Shown: piece by piece, positions 632 to 17,358 of the stretch
Numbering within the stretch: position 1 is the stretch's first letter
Layout: each line of letters opens with the position of its first letter
From: a virus
Virus genome (UHGV): UHGV-0103875
DNA length: 17,896 bases
Strand: one strand, 5' to 3'
Notes under the pieces: model-generated
The model's database searches: none
What the model saw: the letters and a program-made list of their open reading frames with translations, nothing else
Told to the model about the DNA's origin: nothing
Position numbers and translations under genes: made by a program

Positions 632-707
632 TGGTGCTGGTTAACGGACTTGACCCGCTACCAATTCGCTTACAAGGCGACCGCTCTACCATTGGAGCTA
701 AACCAGC
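632..707 (-). tRNA. tRNA, anticodon UGU (Thr-type by anticodon)
   Basis: Minus strand: GCTGGTT-TA-GCTC-CAATGGTA-GAGC-G-GTCGC-CTTGTAA-GCGAA-TTGGT-AGCGG-GTCAAGT-CCGTT-AACCAGC-A-CCA. Perfect 7-bp acceptor stem, D-arm with GG, anticodon loop CUUGUAA, encoded CCA. Atypical G at position 54 of the T-loop. Confidence 0.6.
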
Positions 708-712
708 ATGTT

Positions 713-787
713 TGGCGGGACAGCGTGGACTCGAACCACGATAAGAAGGTTAACAGCCTTCCGTAATGACCTTTATACGACTGACCC
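713..787 (-). tRNA. tRNA, anticodon GUU (Asn-type by anticodon)
   Basis: Minus strand: GGGTCAG-TC-GTAT-AAAGGTCA-TTAC-G-GAAGG-CTGTTAA-CCTTC-TTAT-CGTGG-TTCGAGT-CCACG-CTGTCCC-G-CCA. Canonical T-arm GGTTCGAGTCC, anticodon loop CUGUUAA as in E. coli tRNA-Asn, encoded CCA. One U:U mismatch at acceptor pair 4:69. Confidence 0.65.
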
Positions 788-4702: not shown

Positions 4703-7168
4703 TCAGAATCCTCCTTTCTTCTTGGATTGCGGTTCCTCGCGTTCACGGCGGCGCATTTCAGCAGACTGTTGGTCTGTGTCATAAATAGCGCCATTTGCCT
4801 GAATGCAATACACCGTGCCGGTATTGCCATGACGATTGAGACGAAGGATTAGTTCGGTTTCACCAGGTGGAACACTGTCATCAAAAGCACCTTCACGATG
4901 GATCCCCACCCAATAATCGCAATCCTGTTCAATCTGCCCTGTATCTCGTGAGTCACTTGGTAATGGGCGTTTATTGGTTCGGCTTTCCAGTGCGCGGTTA
5001 AGCTGTGTCAGAAGCACAACAACGCAATCAAGCTCTTTGGCAAGGTTCTTCAGTCCTTTGGTGATCATGCCGTAAGCAAGGTCGTTGCGATCGGCCTTTT
5101 CAGCGGTCATTAGTGTCAGGTAATCGACCAGAATCATGCCAACACATCCTTTTTCTCGCTTGATTCGACGGCTTTCGCTGACGATTTGAGCCAGAGATAA
5201 TCCCGGCGTGTCGTCGATGTAAAGCATGTCGATTTCACTCAAGCGATTGGCTGTTTCGATCGCCCTGTTGAAGTCACCATCGTAATCACCCTGATAGCCG
5301 TCATCAGCGTCATTTGTCGCCGGAAGGTAAAAAATATTCGGGTTAACACCAGACTTCTGCCCTACCAGTTTTTCCAGTATCTGGTCACCTGGCATTTCAA
5401 GGCTGAACATCAGAGCGGGCTTTTTCTCATGCACTGCGCAGTTGATTGCCATCTGGCTGTATAGCGTGGTGTTGTGGGTTAGAATGTATCCGTCAGTTGC
5501 ATACAAATGTCTCTCGTGGGATACCATGATGCAAATGCACTCTTCACGTCCAATATACTCAACCGACGTGATAACAGGCGCACTTGTTTTGATGCGTTTT
5601 GCAGTGAATTTTTGCTTCAGGCGTGGAGATTTTATGTGTGATAGAACCTCATCAGGCAACCTGATTGCGCAAATATGGGCATCCATACCTTTGCGCATTT
5701 CTCCCTTATAACTGAATTTCGGCTCCTGTTTGGTTGTCATACGACACACGCCACCAAGAGAATGCACCAGCCGCTTTACACCATCTGACAGGAACTTGCT
5801 TGCCGAGCTAAAGCGCAGGGCATTATTTCCTTCAACCCAACCATCGGTTTCAAGTAATCCGCATAGAACATCAATACGAGTTTGCTTATCAGCAGAAAAA
5901 ATAATATCCGGGATAATTTTAATCTCTGACATCCGGCCGTAGATACCAAGCCGTTGCATAACCCGCGTAAGAGATAATTTGCGGCTAAACTTGTGAGATA
6001 GGGAGTAATCGCAGCCAGAAACATGCCTGACTTCAATATCGTCACCCACTTCAGATCTTACTCGCTCAATGATGTATGGTTCCGTCATGCTGATTCGTGG
6101 CGTACCTGCAAGATTTCCATCGCCAAGTAACGCACCTAACAGCCATGGGCTAATCCCTAAATCAACAGGCAATCCGAAGTCACCGCTAATACCAGGAACA
6201 TGAATGCGGCTTTGATAGCGAACGCATTCCATCATGTCCCGTAGGCGGCAGGTGTCTACAACATCAACGCCACCGGTAATACGGTTACTATGAATTTCCC
6301 ACAAATGATCATCCGCGCAATCAACGGTTCTTCCGTCAGAGAACGTAACTCGGTAAATATCTCGCTCCCCTTGAGGAAAAACTCCAGACACGAATGATGG
6401 TTGTCCATCCACTGATGCTAGGGAATCTCCAACACATACGTCACGAAATGTTGTCCATGAACCATCAGCAAGCAAAATGCGTGAATTAAGCGGTTGCGCT
6501 TTCCCCATCTTAGGGCGAGCGCCAATGACGAACAGAGAGCCTTTCACCAGACCTTTCGGTGACAGCATCCTGTCCAGAGATGGGATCCCTGTGCTCATTC
6601 CTCGTTGTTCGCCTGACGGGTCAAATCGCTTCTCAAGGTCGCTAACCCAGTCTTCCATGACCTCACCAAATGAGCGAAGGCCGCGACGCGATCCGGTTTT
6701 TGCATGGTCTGTCAGTTGCGTGAAAATCGCCTGAATAGCTTCGTACTTCTGCGTCGCAGTCATTCCGTTGCGGGAATAGAGCAATTCCGTCGCTTCAGTC
6801 ATGCGGTTGATGGCGTAGCGTTCCATTGCGGTTTCGCGAACCTGCATTGCATAGGCAACGATGTTTGCGGCGCTTGCCGTGTTCTTTGCGATCTCAGCGA
6901 TATAAGCAAAACCGCCAACAGACGCCGTTAACGATTTACGCTCCAGTTCACCGAAAAGCGTCAGGCCATCTACTGGCTTTTGCTCCCGGTGCATTCTGGT
7001 TATTTCTTCGAAAAGGATTTTGTGTGGTCGGCTGTAAAATGAATCAGGCTTCAGCATCGCCAGAACTTTCTGGACGCGCTCACTGCTGTCATCATCCAGA
7101 AGCAATCCACCAATCACCGCCTGCTCTGCCTCGATGCTATGGGGCGGCGCATAAAAATTATCGGTCAT
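4703..7168 (-). CDS. DnaB-family replicative helicase (P22 gp12-like, replaces lambda P) interrupted by an intein; ORF track gives a GTG start at 7183, first ATG is at 7168
   Basis: N-terminus PPHSIEAEQAVIGGLLLDD…FYSRPHKILFEE…VGGFAYIAEIAKNTASAANI is colinear with remembered E. coli DnaB. Walker A GARPKMGK is split from TTLYSQMAINCAV…MFSLEMPG by 343 residues. C-terminal half has DnaB motifs (ILVDYLTLM, LTQLNRALESR, GQIEQDCDYW). Confidence 0.85.
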   Translation of the reverse strand: MTDNFYAPPHSIEAEQAVIGGLLLDDDSSERVQKVLAMLKPDSFYSRPHKILFEEITRMHREQKPVDGLTLFGELERKSLTASVGGFAYIAEIAKNTASAANIVAYAMQVRETAMERYAINRMTEATELLYSRNGMTATQKYEAIQAIFTQLTDHAKTGSRRGLRSFGEVMEDWVSDLEKRFDPSGEQRGMSTGIPSLDRMLSPKGLVKGSLFVIGARPKMGKAQPLNSRILLADGSWTTFRDVCVGDSLASVDGQPSFVSGVFPQGERDIYRVTFSDGRTVDCADDHLWEIHSNRITGGVDVVDTCRLRDMMECVRYQSRIHVPGISGDFGLPVDLGISPWLLGALLGDGNLAGTPRISMTEPYIIERVRSEVGDDIEVRHVSGCDYSLSHKFSRKLSLTRVMQRLGIYGRMSEIKIIPDIIFSADKQTRIDVLCGLLETDGWVEGNNALRFSSASKFLSDGVKRLVHSLGGVCRMTTKQEPKFSYKGEMRKGMDAHICAIRLPDEVLSHIKSPRLKQKFTAKRIKTSAPVITSVEYIGREECICIMVSHERHLYATDGYILTHNTTLYSQMAINCAVHEKKPALMFSLEMPGDQILEKLVGQKSGVNPNIFYLPATNDADDGYQGDYDGDFNRAIETANRLSEIDMLYIDDTPGLSLAQIVSESRRIKREKGCVGMILVDYLTLMTAEKADRNDLAYGMITKGLKNLAKELDCVVVLLTQLNRALESRTNKRPLPSDSRDTGQIEQDCDYWVGIHREGAFDDSVPPGETELILRLNRHGNTGTVYCIQANGAIYDTDQQSAEMRRREREEPQSKKKGGF
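5471..6499 (-). mobile_element. Intein (343 aa) with LAGLIDADG homing-endonuclease domain, inserted in the helicase P-loop; candidate class 3 (Ala1, W-C-T triad)
   Basis: Insert begins AQPLNSRILLADGSW immediately after GARPKMGK and ends …ATDGYILTHN followed by Thr (HN/T C-terminal splice junction). Two LAGLIDADG-type motifs inside (WLLGALLGDGNL and LCGLLETDGWV). Block B has …DDHLW, block F …CICIMV, block G GYILTHN, consistent with a Trp/Cys/Thr class 3 arrangement. Flanks rejoin to GARPKMGK-TT, restoring a canonical GKT P-loop. Confidence 0.75.
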
Positions 7169-8057
7169 CGTGTTCACCCTCACGAACTTTCAGGTAGGTA
7201 TTATCGTTAAGCAGGAAATCAAATCCCTTTTTGTGCCAGACGGTTCCGCGCTGATGGTTTTGGCGCTCTTCGAACATCCATCGGCAATTTTCGCCTACGT
7301 AGCTCAAATAATTTCTCCAGTCCTGCATCGTGAACCCATGCCCGTCAAGCTGGCGGGTTATCACTCCGGCTTTGCGCCAGAACGTTCGGATCTGGTTTTT
7401 ACGCTTGTCATTCAGTGCGCGGATTTTTGGCGCTTCAGGAAGGATTTCGTGGTAAGCATCGACAACATCCTGACAGCTAACGGAAGGTTTTTTCTTGTCA
7501 GACTTTTTGTCTGCTGCGGTACTCTCTAATACGTCAGTATTAGAGATAATATTATTATATTCTTTATCTGTGGTAATTTGCTGGTAATCTGCTGGTACAG
7601 TATTGCTTGCAGGCATTGGTATTGCTGGCTTTGAGGTGGTAATTTGCTGGTAATCTGCTGGTACAAAATTTGACTGATAATCGTCATATTTCTCTACCGA
7701 GAAAACTGAGAATTTACCGTGTGAAACCCAGTCAATCATGCCGAGTTTTTTGAACTTTCTAAGCAGGTACTGAACGCGATCTGGTTTGAGTCCTGTTTCA
7801 AACGCCAGAGAGTTTCTACCGCCAAGTAGCTTCCCTCTGCCTACCAGAATTTCTCCTGCGTCAGTCATTACATACTCAGGCGTATGCTTTGCTTTGAGGA
7901 TTAAGTGAACCCACAGATGCGCAGCTTCTGCGTCCTTGTAAAACGGCACATCCATAATTTTACGGTGCAGCAAGGCATACCCCTTACCGCTGCTTTGATG
8001 CGGTTGTTGTAGCCTTCTGGCCTCTCTGGCTTCGGCTAGATTAGATATGTTACTCAT
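7158..8057 (-). CDS. Replication initiator (lambda O / P22 gp18 functional analogue) containing the origin iterons
   Basis: 299 aa; position between cII and the helicase. Central peptide repeat [10 protein letters not shown] x2 is encoded by the DNA iterons. RBS AGGAGAAAGG before ATG 8057. Confidence 0.7.
7541..7667. repeat. Candidate replication origin: direct iterons (TGCTGGTAA/C-type, two copies of a ~30-bp unit GTGGTAATTTGCTGGTAATCTGCTGGTACA) with adjacent AT-rich tract
   Basis: Unit GGTAATTTGCTGGTAATCTGCTGGTACA occurs at ~7573-7600 and ~7638-7665; each holds two TGCTGGTA sub-repeats; a degenerate copy ATTGCTGGC at ~7621. AT-rich stretch AGAGATAATATTATTATATTCTTTATCTG at 7541-7569 lies on the downstream side in the O reading direction, as in lambda ori. 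Confidence 0.65.
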
Positions 8058-8925: not shown

Positions 8926-9642
<717 letters not shown>

Positions 9643-9792
9643 TGGGCAAGGTGTTCTGGTCGGCGCATAGCTGGTGAAAAAATTATTTAATGCGGTGTAT
9701 TGGCTGATTGTAACCCCATGTAACATCTTGCCGTCACCATTTCGGTGGTTAGATTTTTAATAAAAAAAAACAAATGTATAGCAAGGTTTTTT

Positions 9793-10272
9793 ATGGATAA
9801 AATTAATTACCCACCCCTGTTTGAGCCAGGGTTCCATGACATGGATGAAGCTGGATTAAAATCGTATTGTGTCGATTGCTTTCCTTCATCATCCAGGCGA
9901 GGCATGCTATACTGTAATTTTATACAGCTACTCGAATCTATTCGAGAATTATCTGCTCAATATGGCTGTTTTACAGAAATATGGGTTGATGGTTCATACA
10001 CCACGTCTAAACCAGAGCCTGATGATATTGATATTTTGTTGGTATGTGACTATAGCAATATAAACTCAATACCTGTCATGCTTCGGGGCCGCGTCGATAA
10101 TTTGCTTGACCGAAACTACATCAAACAAAACTACAAAATTGATGTCCTACTACTCATGAAGAATTTAGATGACCCTAACTATGATTATGAGTACTGGCGT
10201 AGTTACTGGCGCGGTTGGTTTGGTTTTGATCGCAGTGAAAACCCGAAAGGGTTAGTGAGGATTTTTTTATGA
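9793..10272 (+). CDS. Hypothetical protein, gene A of the rex-slot cassette (~159 aa); possible minimal nucleotidyltransferase-fold protein
   Basis: First ATG at 9793 with AAGG six nt upstream; ORF track extends to GTG 9745. Contains WVDGSYTTSKPEPDDIDILLV, fitting the Pol-beta NTase pattern hG[GS]-x9-13-DhDh. Also CVDC…C. AT-rich compared with the flanking cI. Not RexA. Confidence 0.55.
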   Translation: MDKINYPPLFEPGFHDMDEAGLKSYCVDCFPSSSRRGMLYCNFIQLLESIRELSAQYGCFTEIWVDGSYTTSKPEPDDIDILLVCDYSNINSIPVMLRGRVDNLLDRNYIKQNYKIDVLLLMKNLDDPNYDYEYWRSYWRGWFGFDRSENPKGLVRIFL

Positions 10273-11201
10273 ATGATAAATCAATGTTTAAAAATTGCGA
10301 TAAACGCATTGATTTCATTCAAAAAGAAGTCGATGCAATGAAGCAAAACAAAACCAGGTCCTTTGCTGACATGCTTCTTTATCGCTCCATGGATTCTCAT
10401 CTGAGCGATTTGAAGGCCGAAAAATTAAAGCAAGATAGTCGGCACCCACTTATCGATTTTTTTGAGCTGCGGCTGAAAGGCTCTGAGGTTGACTTTGGCT
10501 CTATTCCTTTAGAGCTGCTTGGGGCTATTTCAACAAATCTTGCAGCGCTAATACAAAGAGCAACACACAAAATTGCCTCAGGCAAGGACTCAAAAAAAGT
10601 TCCCTACGACGTGAAAAGCTCCTTAAACCTCAGGCTGGCTGATTTATCCCCTGGGTCTACAAAATTGGGCGTCACCTTCTCTACAGGAATAGCAGAATTA
10701 GTAGAAACAGTACCCAGCAAGGCTGTAAAAGGCATATTCGATTTGTTGTTAAGCGATGACGACAACAACTTCATGAATCACGTCGCTGAAATTGGATACA
10801 ATTCCACTGTAAGCCTTAAGAGAATCGTAGAGGAATGCGATAAACACAACTTAACATTTGATGCAAGTTGGACCGGTCCATTTAGTAATGGCACCAAGGT
10901 GGCAACTATTGACTCCAATAAAATTAAGTACTTGGTGAGTAGACTTACATCAACCATTTCATCCCCTCCCATTACTGAAACGGTTACAGGCGAACTGGTC
11001 GTTCTATCCAAATATGGGAAGCTGGAGCTTGATGTTGGTGGTGAACATTTAAAGGCTTCCTATCCGATTGAAATGCTAGATTTAATACAAAAAAAACACA
11101 AGGTCGGACAGATTGTTTCTCTTTTAGTGGAGACTACTGAGATTCACAATGATCGCATAGGTCTGTACCGTAAAAACCATCTTGTTAAATCGGTTCTTTA
11201 A
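10269..11201 (+). CDS. Hypothetical protein, gene B of the rex-slot cassette (310 aa), no recognised domain
   Basis: ATG overlaps the gene A stop (ATGA). Soluble-looking, Lys/Ser/Leu-rich, AT-rich codons. No RexB-like transmembrane pattern and no HEPN Rx4-6H motif found by eye. Confidence 0.6.
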   Translation: MNDKSMFKNCDKRIDFIQKEVDAMKQNKTRSFADMLLYRSMDSHLSDLKAEKLKQDSRHPLIDFFELRLKGSEVDFGSIPLELLGAISTNLAALIQRATHKIASGKDSKKVPYDVKSSLNLRLADLSPGSTKLGVTFSTGIAELVETVPSKAVKGIFDLLLSDDDNNFMNHVAEIGYNSTVSLKRIVEECDKHNLTFDASWTGPFSNGTKVATIDSNKIKYLVSRLTSTISSPPITETVTGELVVLSKYGKLELDVGGEHLKASYPIEMLDLIQKKHKVGQIVSLLVETTEIHNDRIGLYRKNHLVKSVL

Positions 11202-11207
11202 TATCTC

Positions 11208-11234
11208 ACCCGGCCACCGCGCCGGGTTTTCTTT
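11208..11234 (+). terminator. Rho-independent terminator closing the cI-cassette transcript (tIMM-equivalent)
   Basis: ACCCGGC-CACCGC-GCCGGGT followed by TTTTCTTTG immediately after the gene B stop. Confidence 0.7.
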
Positions 11235-11395
11235 GCCTCACGATCTCCCCACCTAAAAAAACATAACTCATTGTATTTATTGAAAAATAAATAGATACAA
11301 CTCACTAAACATAGCAATTCAGATCTCTCACCTACCAAACAATGCCCCCCTGCAAAAAATAAATTCATATAAAAAACATACAGATAACCATCTGC

Positions 11396-11458
11396 GGTGA
11401 TAAATTATCTCTGGCGGTGTTGACATAAATACCACTGGCGGTGATACTGAGCACATCA
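11396..11458 (+). promoter_or_regulatory. Lambda left operator OL3-OL2-OL1 with PL promoter (-35 TTGACA 11430-11435, -10 GATACT 11453-11458) directed toward N
   Basis: OL3 AACCATCTGCGGTGATA (11396-11412), OL2 TATCTCTGGCGGTGTTG (11416-11432), OL1 TACCACTGGCGGTGATA (11440-11456); 17-bp spacing between -35 and -10. Confidence 0.9.
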
Positions 11459-11487
11459 GCAGGACGCACTGACCACCATGAAGGTGA

Positions 11488-11518
11488 CGCTCTTAAAAAT
11501 TAAGCCCTGAAGAAGGGC
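11488..11518 (+). promoter_or_regulatory. nutL (boxA CGCTCTTA, boxB GCCCTGAAGAAGGGC)
   Basis: Exact lambda nutL boxA at 11488-11495 and boxB hairpin at 11504-11518 in the PL leader. Confidence 0.9.
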
Positions 11519-11690
11519 AGCATTCAAAGCAGAAGGCTTTGGGGTGTGGTGAAGGGTTCATGGATGGGAATATGTCGCACGTAAAGCGGCGAGGCCTGCG
11601 GAACTATTGCCGAATTGAAGTCGGCCGAAGCAGGTCGAAATGGGTCTCCCACCTACCACACCACCAAAGCTAACTGACAGGAGAATCAAG

Positions 11691-12017
11691 ATGGATGCAC
11701 AAACACGCCGCCGCGAACGTCGCGCAGAGAAACAGGCTCAATGGAAAGCAGCAAATCCCCTGTTGGTTGGGGTAAGCGCAAAACCAGTTAACCGCCCTAT
11801 TCTCTCGCTGAATCGCAAACCGAAATCACGAGTAGAAAGCGCACTGAATCCGATAGACCTTACGGTGCTGGCTGAATACCACGAACAGATTGAAAGCAAC
11901 CTGCAACGTATTGAGCGCAAGAATCAGCGCACATGGTACAGCAAGCCACGCAGTGAAATGGGTGTGACTTGTGTTGGTCGCCAGAAAATGAAATTAGGCA
12001 GCAAACCACTTATTTGA
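11691..12017 (+). CDS. N: Antitermination protein N (lambda type); upstream ORF-track extension rejected
   Basis: From ATG 11691: MDAQTRRRERRAEKQAQWKAANPLLVGVSAKPVNRPILSLNRKPKSRVESALNPIDLTVLAEYHEQIESNLQRIERKNQRTWYSKP…, with the arginine-rich boxB-binding motif at the N-terminus. Confidence 0.95.
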   Translation: MDAQTRRRERRAEKQAQWKAANPLLVGVSAKPVNRPILSLNRKPKSRVESALNPIDLTVLAEYHEQIESNLQRIERKNQRTWYSKPRSEMGVTCVGRQKMKLGSKPLI

Positions 12018-12025
12018 GGTGAGAT

Positions 12026-12496
12026 ATGACAAAATCATGGAGTGTACCTTTTCCTGAATCAGAAACTGAACATGATGGAATGCCTGTTTTCTGGAGATTC
12101 CAGGCGACAGTTGAAGAAGATGGAATCAAAATATTCGCACTTCAATATATAGCTTTTCATCAGACAGAGCATTATGCATGGTTGGTTCCTGCGCATTGGA
12201 TTGTTAATTTTAAACCAGCACCAAATCAGTGGTTACAGGAATGGAAACAAAAGAGAAATAGATATGCAATTAAGAAAGTAGCAAAAAATGCAGAAAGATC
12301 TTTTGCATTCCCAACGAAGAAACTTGCCATTGAAAGTTTATTGCGCCGGAAGAAATACCATTTAATGAGAATCAAACAAGATTTGGCTGTTGCATCAACT
12401 CTTGTTGATGGGATGAAGAATATTGATACATCAACACCAGATATTGAATATAACTTTGGACACAACCAAGAAACAGAAAATTGGGTATTTTATTAG
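12026..12496 (+). CDS. Hypothetical protein (156 aa) directly downstream of N, in the lambda sieB/ral position
   Basis: Starts 8 nt after the N stop. AT-rich, Trp-rich (WSVPF, FWRF, WLVPAHWIVNF, WLQEWKQK); no recognised family. Confidence 0.6.
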   Translation: MTKSWSVPFPESETEHDGMPVFWRFQATVEEDGIKIFALQYIAFHQTEHYAWLVPAHWIVNFKPAPNQWLQEWKQKRNRYAIKKVAKNAERSFAFPTKKLAIESLLRRKKYHLMRIKQDLAVASTLVDGMKNIDTSTPDIEYNFGHNQETENWVFY

Positions 12497-12639
12497 TACA
12501 AATAAGCACTGTGTATTCATTCCAACGAGTGAATACACGGAGCAATGTCGCTCGTAACTAAACAGGAGCCGACTTGTTCTGATTATTGGAAATCTTCTTT
12601 GCCCTCCAGTGTGAGGGCAATTTTTTTAACGGGGGAAAT

Positions 12640-13608
12640 ATGAGTGAAGTAACAGATTTAGTTGTTATTGAAAAAGCAAATGCAATGACTGTATTTCAGT
12701 CTGCCGATCAGATTGAAGAAATCCTTCAAAAGGTTGAACGTGAAGTTATGTCCTTTGTGCCTGATATCACAACGGCAAAGGGAAGAAAGGAGATCGCTTC
12801 TCTGGCGTATAAAGTTGCGCAGACGAAAACATATCTCGATGGTCTTGGCAAAGACCTTGTTGCTGAACTGAAGGAAATTCCAAAGCTAATTGATGCTAAC
12901 CGCAAGACAGTGCGTGATCGCCTTGATGAGCTGAAAGCCAAGGCACGCCAGCCTCTTACTGATTATGAGGAAGAACAGGCGCGGATTAAAGCCGAAGAAG
13001 AAGCTAAGGCAGCAGCTGAAGCTCTCGCAAAGCAAATTGAGTCTGACCATGAAATAGCGATTTTGATGGATCGCGAATTTGACCGCCAAAGAGAAGAGGC
13101 AAGACTCAAAGCGGAGCAGGAAAAGCGAGAGCATGAAGAACGCTTAAAAAGAGAAGCTGAAGAGAAAGCCAGAGCTGAAGCCGAAGCAAAGGCAAAAGCC
13201 GAAATTGAAGCAGCAGCAAGGCGAGAAGCAGAAGCTAAGGCCGCAGCGGAACGTGCAGAGCGTGAACGCATTGAAGCCGAGCAACGAGCACAGCGCGAAG
13301 CAAAAGAGGCAGCAGAACGAGCTGAAAGAGAAAAGCAGGCAGCAATTGAAGCAGAACGCCGAAAAGCACAGGAGGAGGCAGAACGAATCCGGCGCGAGGC
13401 TGAAGCAAAAGAGCAAGCCAGAATAGCAGAAGAAAAAAGAATCAAGGACGAAGAAGAGCGTAGAGCAAAGGATAAAGCTCACCGGAGAGAAGTAAATAAC
13501 AAAATACTTGCTGACCTTATCAAGGTTGGCGCATCAGAAGATGTTGCTAAAAATATCATAATAGCCATCGCAAAAGGCGAAGTATTCGCAACAAAAATAA
13601 CCTACTAA
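12640..13608 (+). CDS. Highly charged coiled-coil protein (~322 aa) with long E/A/K/R-rich repeat region
   Basis: Start ATG 12640 preceded by GGGGGAA; the ORF-track N-terminal extension is rejected. Central ~180 aa are quasi-repeats of AEAKAKAEIEAAARREAEAKAAAERAERE… flanked by ordinary N- and C-terminal segments. Confidence 0.6.
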   Translation: MSEVTDLVVIEKANAMTVFQSADQIEEILQKVEREVMSFVPDITTAKGRKEIASLAYKVAQTKTYLDGLGKDLVAELKEIPKLIDANRKTVRDRLDELKAKARQPLTDYEEEQARIKAEEEAKAAAEALAKQIESDHEIAILMDREFDRQREEARLKAEQEKREHEERLKREAEEKARAEAEAKAKAEIEAAARREAEAKAAAERAERERIEAEQRAQREAKEAAERAEREKQAAIEAERRKAQEEAERIRREAEAKEQARIAEEKRIKDEEERRAKDKAHRREVNNKILADLIKVGASEDVAKNIIIAIAKGEVFATKITY

Positions 13609-15673: not shown

Positions 15674-15841
15674 ATGAGAGGACTTGCATACAATCCCGGC
15701 ATTCTTCCGGCAGAAATGATTATTCACCAACGCGTAAAGCCAATGCCATCGAGAGAAGAATTGCTTAAGAGAAATAGTTTCGGTTCTGTTAATGACAACA
15801 AATATCTGAATGCGATGCGGCGCAAAGGAGGCAACCAGTGA
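15674..15841 (+). CDS. Hypothetical small protein (55 aa from ATG 15674)
   Basis: GAGGA RBS seven nt upstream of ATG 15674. C-terminus …RRKGGNQ is encoded by the conserved junction module shared with the next cassette boundary. Confidence 0.4.
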
Positions 15842-16563
15842 GCGAAATTAACTATAAAGAACTGCGCGAGGCGGCGAAACAGGCAACGCAAGATGAATGG
15901 GTAGCATATATTTTGCCGGGTCATAACGGCATTTATCCTGCGCGCACGTCTGAGGGTAGGCATTGCGGATACTTTATTGACTGGCCTAGCGTCTGTCAGG
16001 GGCGGGAGAGCATCAACATGAGCATCAGAACCTACGCAGTGAATTGCAATGACGCATGGCTAAACACCGAAGGTGATGACATCTCCGGCTCATACGTTAA
16101 GTACAAAGACCATCAGGAAGTGGTTGCCGCTCTTGAGGCCAAGTGCGCGGCGCTGGCGGCGGAGAATGAGCTGGCTCGTAAGGCAGTTCAGGCATTCTGC
16201 GATGTTGTTGGCGACAACACCGAGGTTATCGCTGAGGAGGTTGGGCGAGATGGCGTTCTGGTTATTTTGGGGGCCATGAAGGCAACAGGAAATATTTCAG
16301 CCACCGATGCTTTTCTGGCTGAAATTCGTGCGGAAGCACGCAACGAGGGGATTAACTATACCGCCAGCCGTCTTGCTGCTGCGTTCAATCACGGATTTAT
16401 CAATAAATCTTTGCGTGAAGTTTTCGACGTTACACGCATGATTTTGTCAGCGAAAGAAGAGTTGGCTAATGAACCGCATCCGATTGATGGCCTGTCCGGT
16501 GAATATGCGGAGAAATCCCTTGAAGAATGGGCGGAACAGATTCGCAAAGGAGGCAAGCAGTGA
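15838..16563 (+). CDS. Ead/Ea22-like protein (241 aa), GTG start
   Basis: GTG 15838 with AAGGAGG six nt upstream and GTGA overlap with the preceding stop. N-terminus [21 protein letters not shown] is the Ead/Ea22-type signature and is paralogous to the ORF at 16861. Confidence 0.6.
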
Positions 16564-16860: not shown

Positions 16861-17358
16861 ATGAACAAGATTGACTATCAGGCACTGCGTGAGGCGGCAG
16901 AGAAGGCAACGTGGGGAGACTGGGACTCATATAAACCACACCGTGGCGCACGTGGTTATGAGGTCCGACTAAGTAGTCAGGCCATTGCGCAACACGTTCT
17001 GAAAAACAACGCTGAATTTATTGCTGCCTTTAATCCAAAGATTGCTTTGGCACTACTGGATGAACGGGAAAGGAACCAGCAATACATCAAACGCCGCGAC
17101 CAAGAGAACGAGGATATTGCGCTAACGGTAGGGAAGCTGCGCGTTGAGCTTGAAGCAGAAAAACAGCGGGCAAAAGTTCTATTTATGGAAAATGCTCGGC
17201 TTAAGTCAGGCATAGCCGGTCTGATACACCTCGGTATTCGATATGCAGATGTTGAGGTCATGAAAATTGCTGGAGATGCCCAGCTTTCTACCCCATGCAC
17301 TGACAGCATCATAAATAGCATTACAGCAGGTATTTTCACCAAAGAGGGGGCAGCATGA
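16861..17358 (+). CDS. Ead/Ea22-like protein (165 aa)
   Basis: N-terminus MNKIDYQALREAAEKATWGDWD is paralogous to the 15838 ORF; coiled-coil middle (…LRVELEAEKQRAKVLFMENARLK…). Confidence 0.6.
   Translation: MNKIDYQALREAAEKATWGDWDSYKPHRGARGYEVRLSSQAIAQHVLKNNAEFIAAFNPKIALALLDERERNQQYIKRRDQENEDIALTVGKLRVELEAEKQRAKVLFMENARLKSGIAGLIHLGIRYADVEVMKIAGDAQLSTPCTDSIINSITAGIFTKEGAA

Follow-up and report, generated by a model that had tools for sequence, protein, structure and literature searches.

The DNA analysed here, 17,896 nucleotides of virus genome UHGV-0103875 (the window), comes from a phage or prophage of the lambdoid group that has lambda immunity and whose early-left operon lies on the + strand (Table 1). 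The OL/PL region is identical to that of lambda, in which the equivalent PL hit is found at 3118-3090 of the lambda locus (L002). N follows, and directly behind it stands the open reading frame (ORF) with which this report is concerned. A preliminary description had drawn attention to it as an AT-rich ORF that starts 8 nt after the N stop and encodes a Trp-rich protein, and all three points were confirmed. The TGA stop codon of N occupies 12015-12017, leaving a gap of 8 nt (12018-12025) before the ATG of the ORF. GC content is 35.7% in the ORF (GC3 26.8%) as compared with 49.8% in N and 46.1% in the window, and the 18.6 kDa product, with a pI of 9.05, contains 7 Trp among its 156 residues (4.5%).

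Table 1. Features of the window in order of position, with their strand and distinguishing details.
Feature	Coordinates	Strand	Details
tRNA-Thr(TGT) and tRNA-Asn(GTT)	632-787	-	adjacent; rightward end of window
DnaB-type replicative helicase	4703-7183	-	826 aa; N-terminal domain 13-117, C-terminal domain 572-792
cI	8929-9642		left border of the rexA/rexB slot
rexA/rexB slot	9745-11201	+	two different genes between cI and PL; terminator 11208-11227
PL promoter	11420-11448	+	TTGACA-17-GATACT; 10/12 consensus match; identical to lambda PL
nutL	11488-11518	+	boxA CGCTCTTAA 11488-11496; boxB hairpin GCCCTGAAGAAGGGC 11504-11518; corresponds to annotated lambda Nutl
N antiterminator, lambda type	11691-12017	+	108 aa; PF11438 E 1.5e-26; phrog_271
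Junction DNA shared with 933W and HK97	11964-12025		same DNA in L005 2947-3008 (933W) and in L014 (HK97)
Shine-Dalgarno GAGGTGA of the ORF	12016-12022	+	strong; overlaps the N stop codon
ORF	12026-12496	+	ATG start; 156 codons, 156 aa
RNA hairpin	12509-12540	+	first element of the lambda-like right boundary; 14-bp stem, 4-nt loop, no U-tract
Intrinsic terminator	12599-12629	+	8-bp GC-rich stem, then T7
322-aa gene, next in operon	12640-13608	+	phrog_1376; 'TolA protein' in some records; no Pfam domain
Ead/Ea22-like gene, distal early-left	15838-16563	+	PF13935 E 1.4e-16
Ead/Ea22-like gene, distal early-left	16861-17358	+	PF13935 E 1.6e-31

The ORF had been listed as unknown. As regards function this holds, no member of its family having a described role, but the protein itself is not new. 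Its product matches phrog_1636 at full length (E 3.2e-111; residues 1-156 on positions 1-156 of the 156-position profile) and shares 98.1-99.4% identity, over residues 1-156, with the reference members in HK97, 933W and H-19B (tblastn). Annotated equivalents are HK97 Gp45 (NP_037731), 933W ST933Wp19 (NP_049479) and Min27 ORF20; the counterpart in H-19B is an ORF left unannotated in that record. Judged from these alignments, the ORF encodes the same protein as HK97 gp45 and 933W NP_049479, and it is already catalogued as a conserved hypothetical protein. The two have the same length and the same place after N and before a conserved terminator; they differ in that gp45 of HK97 and 933W sits behind an HK97/933W-type N across a 58-nt gap, whereas the ORF sits behind a lambda-type N across 8 nt.

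An identical protein sequence is present on 189 contigs, and the 90% cluster has 639 members whose names, where given, are all 'hypothetical' or 'prophage protein'. The gene occurs in 598 of 5426 complete Escherichia coli genomes (11%), with no more than four copies per genome, and in the Stx phages 933W and H-19B and in HK97 it has been 'hypothetical' ever since these phages were sequenced; literature searches found no functional study of HK97 gp45, the 933W gene, phrog_1636 or NP_049479. Full-length homologues with 55-85% identity were found in Cronobacter, Pectobacterium, Brenneria, Rosenbergiella and Symbiopectobacterium, and an alignment of 21 homologues (55-98% identity) contains 40 invariant columns. 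The dN/dS ratio is 0.07-0.14 against close copies and 0.16 against the Rosenbergiella copy; in the remaining distant pairs synonymous sites are saturated, with dN of 0.2-0.33. Because the ORF product matches phrog_1636 over its whole length, has homologues down to 55% identity and shows dN/dS of 0.07-0.16, we conclude that the ORF is a genuine gene under purifying selection and not a chance reading frame.

A search of plasmids gave 11 matching records, all of them at least 95% identical and all non-mobilizable, which are probably excised or mis-binned phage DNA. That the gene might be a conjugative leading-region anti-defence gene was considered and rejected, the plasmid matches being just these 11, non-mobilizable and near-identical.

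Homology to lambda spans window positions 11208-11992, where it ends at lambda 35062, and restarts at 12506 (lambda 34045); the ORF therefore replaces the sieB-orf28-ral segment of lambda. The proposal that it occupies the sieB/ral slot is well supported by this break in homology and by the cargo of phages with the same flanks, which is ral in HK544, Sf101 and Sf6, and an unrelated 83-aa ORF in mEp234 and VT2-Sakai. Despite near-identical flanks, the gene is absent from lambda, VT2-Sakai and mEp234. The right joint (12506-12626, 121 bp) is 99% identical to lambda 34045-33925 and contains both an inverted repeat and an intrinsic terminator; it recurs in 329 phage records, 78 of which carry the ORF. 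The left joint falls within N, at its 3' end. From window position 11964 onwards there is homology to 933W and H-19B, and the last ~54 nt of N are shared with the DNA found behind the differing N genes of 933W, H-19B and HK97.

In HK97 and 933W, the 58-nt 'intergenic' stretch that separates N from gp45 shows homology to the 3'-terminal coding sequence of a lambda-type N, of whose C-terminus it is a relic. The cassette was therefore apparently first joined to a lambda-type N, and other N alleles would have recombined in afterwards within the N 3' end.

The surroundings of the gene were surveyed in 80 IMG/VR loci that carry near-identical copies of the ORF. In 40 of the loci the gene stands 8 nt behind a lambda-type N, and in 20 it follows an HK97-type N after 58 nt; the others have a different N type upstream, or N together with one or two small extra ORFs. 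Downstream, the neighbour is ea10 (27 loci), cIII (12), the 322-aa gene (11), gp17 (10) or something else (the remainder). The left junction, TTATTTGAGGTGAGAT-ATG, is kept in all 80 loci behind at least five different upstream sequences, and neither ral nor sieB was found within 3 kb of the gene in any of them. Nor did a search of the rest of the window turn up any homologue of Ral, SieB, gp17, Ea10, Gam or Lar. In prophages of Pectobacterium and Brenneria the homologue is the last gene ahead of xis-int, on the early-left strand; indeed, all close homologues whose flanks were examined are on the early-left strand, either after N or immediately before xis-int.

In some E. coli prophages there is extra cargo between N and gp45 (L031 2023-2939; L084 2711-2938), consisting of a 75-aa ORF, to which L031 adds one of 230 aa, so that several cassettes can stand one after another in the slot.

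We conclude that the ORF is a mobile single-gene accessory cassette of the lambdoid PL operon, carried in a variable slot between N and cIII, and that the gene is dispensable and horizontally exchanged. It is accessory rather than essential because it is absent from phages with near-identical flanks and present in only about one in nine E. coli genomes.

The preliminary description had also remarked on a perfect 9-bp inverted repeat after the ORF. The repeat is present, with GTGTATTCA / TGAATACAC as its perfect core and arms at 12506-12522 / 12527-12543, but it belongs to the lambda-like boundary segment and not to the ORF cassette. The RNA hairpin at this place is 99% identical to lambda 34011-34042, folding of the 151-nt region around it gave z = -4.67 against shuffles, and no Rfam match was found in the region. 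The terminator beyond the hairpin is the first intrinsic terminator downstream of PL. Its equivalent in lambda (33952-33922) lies between ral and ea10, and a terminator is annotated at the equivalent place in HK97 and mEp234; we take it to correspond to the tL2 cluster of lambda.

These elements bear on when the gene is expressed. Upstream of the ORF on the + strand, a consensus scan, which weak promoters escape, picked out PL alone as promoter-like and gave no sigma-70-like site from there to the ORF. Nor did a scan for intrinsic terminators place one between PL and the ORF stop. Because the first predicted terminator lies only beyond the ORF, the gene is probably carried, together with N, on the N-independent immediate-early transcript, and the earlier statement that it is expressed once N has been made is probably wrong. 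In addition, the 8-nt gap and the overlapping ribosome-binding site leave no untranslated stretch on which Rho could load. The gene product is thus probably among the first proteins made on infection or induction. From the same scans, which cover consensus promoters and intrinsic terminators and would miss Rho-dependent termination, we infer that CI represses the ORF in the lysogen.

The leader of N has a mosaic makeup. PL, nutL and the N body are of lambda type, but a 133-nt stretch separating nutL from N (11537-11669, +) is 97% identical to the N leader of 933W and unlike that of lambda, which could change the control of N translation by RNase III or by N autoregulation.

Neither the ORF product nor the 57 members of its family had a significant match in Pfam, NCBIfam or PADLOC; the best match in PADLOC-DB v2, to Cas1_II, was not significant (E 0.01, 13 bits over 45 residues), and searches of PHROGs returned just families without assigned function. 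The product did not match PF11058 (Ral) even at E<=1, nor did it match PF14163 (SieB) or PF17420 (GP17, P22 gp17), although the controls lambda Ral (E 1.6e-48), lambda SieB (E 1e-29) and gp17 (E 3.6e-52) each matched their own Pfam family. The protein had been called unrelated to the other occupants of the slot, and in the case of Ral, SieB and gp17 these comparisons bear this out. It likewise has no relation in sequence to PF14354 (Lar). No match to a known housekeeping phage function, which according to the preliminary description would have refuted its interpretation, was found by homology. A relation to the 83-aa ORF of mEp234, to H-19B gp17 and to lambda Ea10 was tried by hhalign and rejected (probability <=1.6%, with gp17 at 1.6%).

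An exhaustive profile search gave 87 representatives at E<=0.001, mostly of 130-160 aa and covering residues ~19-140; from these, fragments of close copies and repeat or low-complexity artefacts were set aside. Two apparent fusion proteins (P0062, P0081) were rejected as artefacts of the latter kind. The family pattern reads YYR..EDG(L/I)...ET.C in its first part and K..K...RFAF.TK..A...L..RK..Q..HLKR in its second, followed by a C-terminal aromatic residue and then D/E. All 57 members of the family alignment (A2) match phrog_1636. Only G33, K87 and A101 are conserved in at least 90% of them, which points to a binder and away from an enzyme; the best-conserved polar positions on the strand and long helix of the model described below are K84, K87, R91, R107, K109, H112 and R115. 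Charge is distributed in three parts, with a pI of 5.1 for the N-terminal domain, 10.9 for residues 61-125 (17 K/R) and 4.1 for the tail. No transmembrane segment was found by hydropathy, the maximum 19-residue Kyte-Doolittle mean being 0.56 for the ORF product as compared with 1.73 for lambda SieB, and the protein is predicted to be soluble.

AlphaFold prediction from 21 close homologues reached a pLDDT of 66, and addition of 36 remote homologues (18-29% identity) raised this to 95, with a pTM of 0.82 (models ma8f4aa529437 and mb46247daf68f); the close family is therefore too shallow for structure prediction. In the model, three long antiparallel strands (residues 19-55) form a beta-sheet and are followed by two short helices (56-74), a basic strand (83-86) and a 33-residue helix (98-130); the N- and C-terminal segments are ordered, extended and non-regular. 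A sequence search of the PDB with two profiles gave nothing better than E 0.3, and no solved structure in the PDB to April 2026 was similar in fold to the pLDDT-95 model. The predicted fold is apparently new, that is, unrepresented among solved structures. Small Tudor/SH3-like adaptors such as PipX (3n5b_B), the C-terminal Tudor domains of UvrD/PcrA, and KOW domains are among the closest known systems. The remote-homology and structure searches recommended at the outset thus yielded phage proteins without an assigned role and no solved analogue.

In BFVD there were 13 matches at E<=0.001, all uncharacterised. They include proteins of Erwinia phiEa2809, Achromobacter phiAxp-3 and Delftia RG-2014, and of rhizobial, Tenacibaculum and Cellulophaga phages, so the family reaches beyond the enterobacterial lambdoid phages; phiEa2809 and phiAxp-3 we take to be virulent. 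Remote relatives also fall in phrog_13631, phrog_25384 and phrog_28215. Distant members are placed in runs of small early genes or in accessory clusters, in temperate and presumably virulent phages alike: one is two genes from a Lar homologue, with an MT-A70 methyltransferase gene ~5 kb away in the same locus, another is two genes from a DNA methyltransferase, and a third follows an AAA_24 recombination ATPase. A 127-aa member in an uncultured phage (L026 5899-6315) is inserted between the terminase genes, small and large, but is read from the other strand and has an intrinsic terminator directly after it, as a stand-alone unit of the moron type. These neighbourhoods fit an accessory, moron-like gene without defining its function.

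The reading that we favour, tentatively and at rather less than even confidence, is that the product acts as an immediate-early binder, either neutralising a barrier set by the host or commandeering one of its functions. It is suggested by the slot, the timing of expression, the dispensability of the gene, the lack of a catalytic signature and the occurrence of the family in phages of differing lifestyles. The cassette, lying between two conserved recombination joints (the N 3' end and the hairpin-plus-terminator segment) and bringing its own ribosome-binding site, would be silent in the lysogen and would be made with N in the first minutes of infection or induction. Its product, a soluble alpha/beta protein by prediction, would have an acidic beta-sheet domain, a strongly basic centre in which the strand is joined to the long helix, and a tail that is both acidic and aromatic. 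Acting as a stoichiometric binder, it might contact a host protein or nucleic-acid complex through the conserved basic face, with the outcome that a host barrier is neutralised or a host function captured, in the manner of its slot- and operon-mates Ral, Gam, Kil and CIII.

Several observations count against parts of this reading. The target and the counter-defence role are guesses from position and protein features. What points to anti-restriction or anti-defence, as first proposed for this ORF, is position; homology, fold and neighbourhood gave it no confirmation. Location in a hot-spot is itself weak evidence of counter-defence, and the operon also holds recombination, regulatory and other genes. 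A net basic protein is, moreover, unlike the acidic DNA mimics that are typical of anti-restriction, and the neighbourhood links to Lar and to methyltransferases amount to two anecdotes. As to early timing, the stand-alone unit of L026 fits a prophage-expressed function equally well, and Rho-dependent termination or a weak promoter beyond the reach of the scans could alter the picture.

A role within the phage's own programme is nearly as likely, and Ral-like and SieB-like roles are less so. The protein could possibly be a nucleic-acid-binding helper that tunes early transcription or antitermination, mRNA stability, recombination or replication, a reading to which we would give somewhat under a one-in-three chance. 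The basic segment at residues 61-125 and the K/R/H character of the best-conserved polar positions on the strand and long helix would suit such a helper, as would the translational adjacency of the gene to N in most E. coli copies and the presence of relatives among recombination genes (RecE, RecT, YqaJ, AAA_24, Erf). Nevertheless, the gene is dispensable and freely exchanged, operons that are the same in all else carrying ral or another gene in its place, and no known DNA- or RNA-binding domain or fold was detected in the searches. At least three unrelated N types serve as its partners, and in Pectobacterium and Brenneria it adjoins xis-int; the gene is therefore not tied to a given N, nut site or recombinase.

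It is unlikely that the protein is a functional analogue of Ral, which would protect an unmodified infecting genome either by relieving type I restriction or by boosting modification. The two genes share the slot between N and the hairpin-terminator segment, the operon and the early window, they are mutually exclusive in the loci examined, the ORF replacing ral with no co-occurrence in 80 loci, and early expression, as deduced above, would suit the guarding of incoming DNA. However, the 156-aa product shows no similarity in sequence to Ral (PF11058), which has 66 aa, or to Lar (PF14354). The same slot also holds sieB, gp17-type and other genes, so that a shared slot does not imply a shared function, and relatives occur in hosts and presumably virulent phages without evident link to EcoKI-type systems.

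Improbable, too, is a SieB-like factor, that is, an exclusion or defence protein expressed from the prophage to guard the lysogen. The ORF occupies the position and the genomic segment that sieB has in lambda (SieB of lambda and P22 belongs to PF14163), it is AT-rich as are many morons, and the opposite-strand unit of L026 with its own terminator has the classic moron layout. SieB is expressed from the prophage (PMC10883804), whereas the ORF appears built for co-translation with N, and the consensus scan found no promoter-like site of its own between PL and the ORF, so that, unless a weak promoter escaped it, repression by CI is to be expected. The hydrophobic membrane segment of SieB has no equivalent in the ORF product, which lacks a predicted transmembrane segment and is not homologous to SieB. 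There was no significant PADLOC match, and relatives occur in phages that are presumably virulent.

That the ORF is decaying or non-functional, without a phage role, is effectively refuted by the selection and conservation data, since the dN/dS values are low, homologues in several genera are conserved over their full length even at 55% identity, the remote family spans many phages, the coevolution signal sufficed for a pLDDT-95 model, and the truncated database copies (P0009, P0024, P0027) that together with the lack of a reported phenotype might suggest decay are labelled partial or come from short contigs.

A broader form of the host-target reading, which we consider doubtful, is that the gp45 family, together with phrog_13631, phrog_25384 and phrog_28215, makes up a new-fold class of immediate-early counter-defence or host-takeover proteins. 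Its members would bind a conserved host target via the basic face, and the class would span temperate lambdoid phages, including 933W and H-19B, and virulent phages of Proteobacteria and Bacteroidota. If a host defence is indeed neutralised or a host machine redirected, the gene would define a new counter-defence family and would bear on how Shiga-toxin prophages are induced; otherwise it is one more accessory gene in a known mosaic hot-spot. We regard the finding as a reasonable candidate for screening and not as a discovery.

The 322-aa gene that comes next in the operon is outside the ORF cassette. A Rosenbergiella prophage (L009/L017 978-1949) has a homologue of it with 46% identity, again near a gp45 homologue and downstream of it, a hint that their association is older.

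The rexA/rexB slot holds a 175-aa gene product with a DUF6932 domain that matches PADLOC PDC-M63A (E 2.4e-41), and a 310-aa product that matches PDC-M63B (E 7.5e-45). The pair is a candidate two-gene defence system and is probably co-transcribed with cI in the lysogen. In the DnaB-type helicase, ~450 residues separate the N- and C-terminal domains, and a weak LAGLIDADG_3 match at residues 439-485 falls in this insert, which suggests an intein or a homing-endonuclease insertion.
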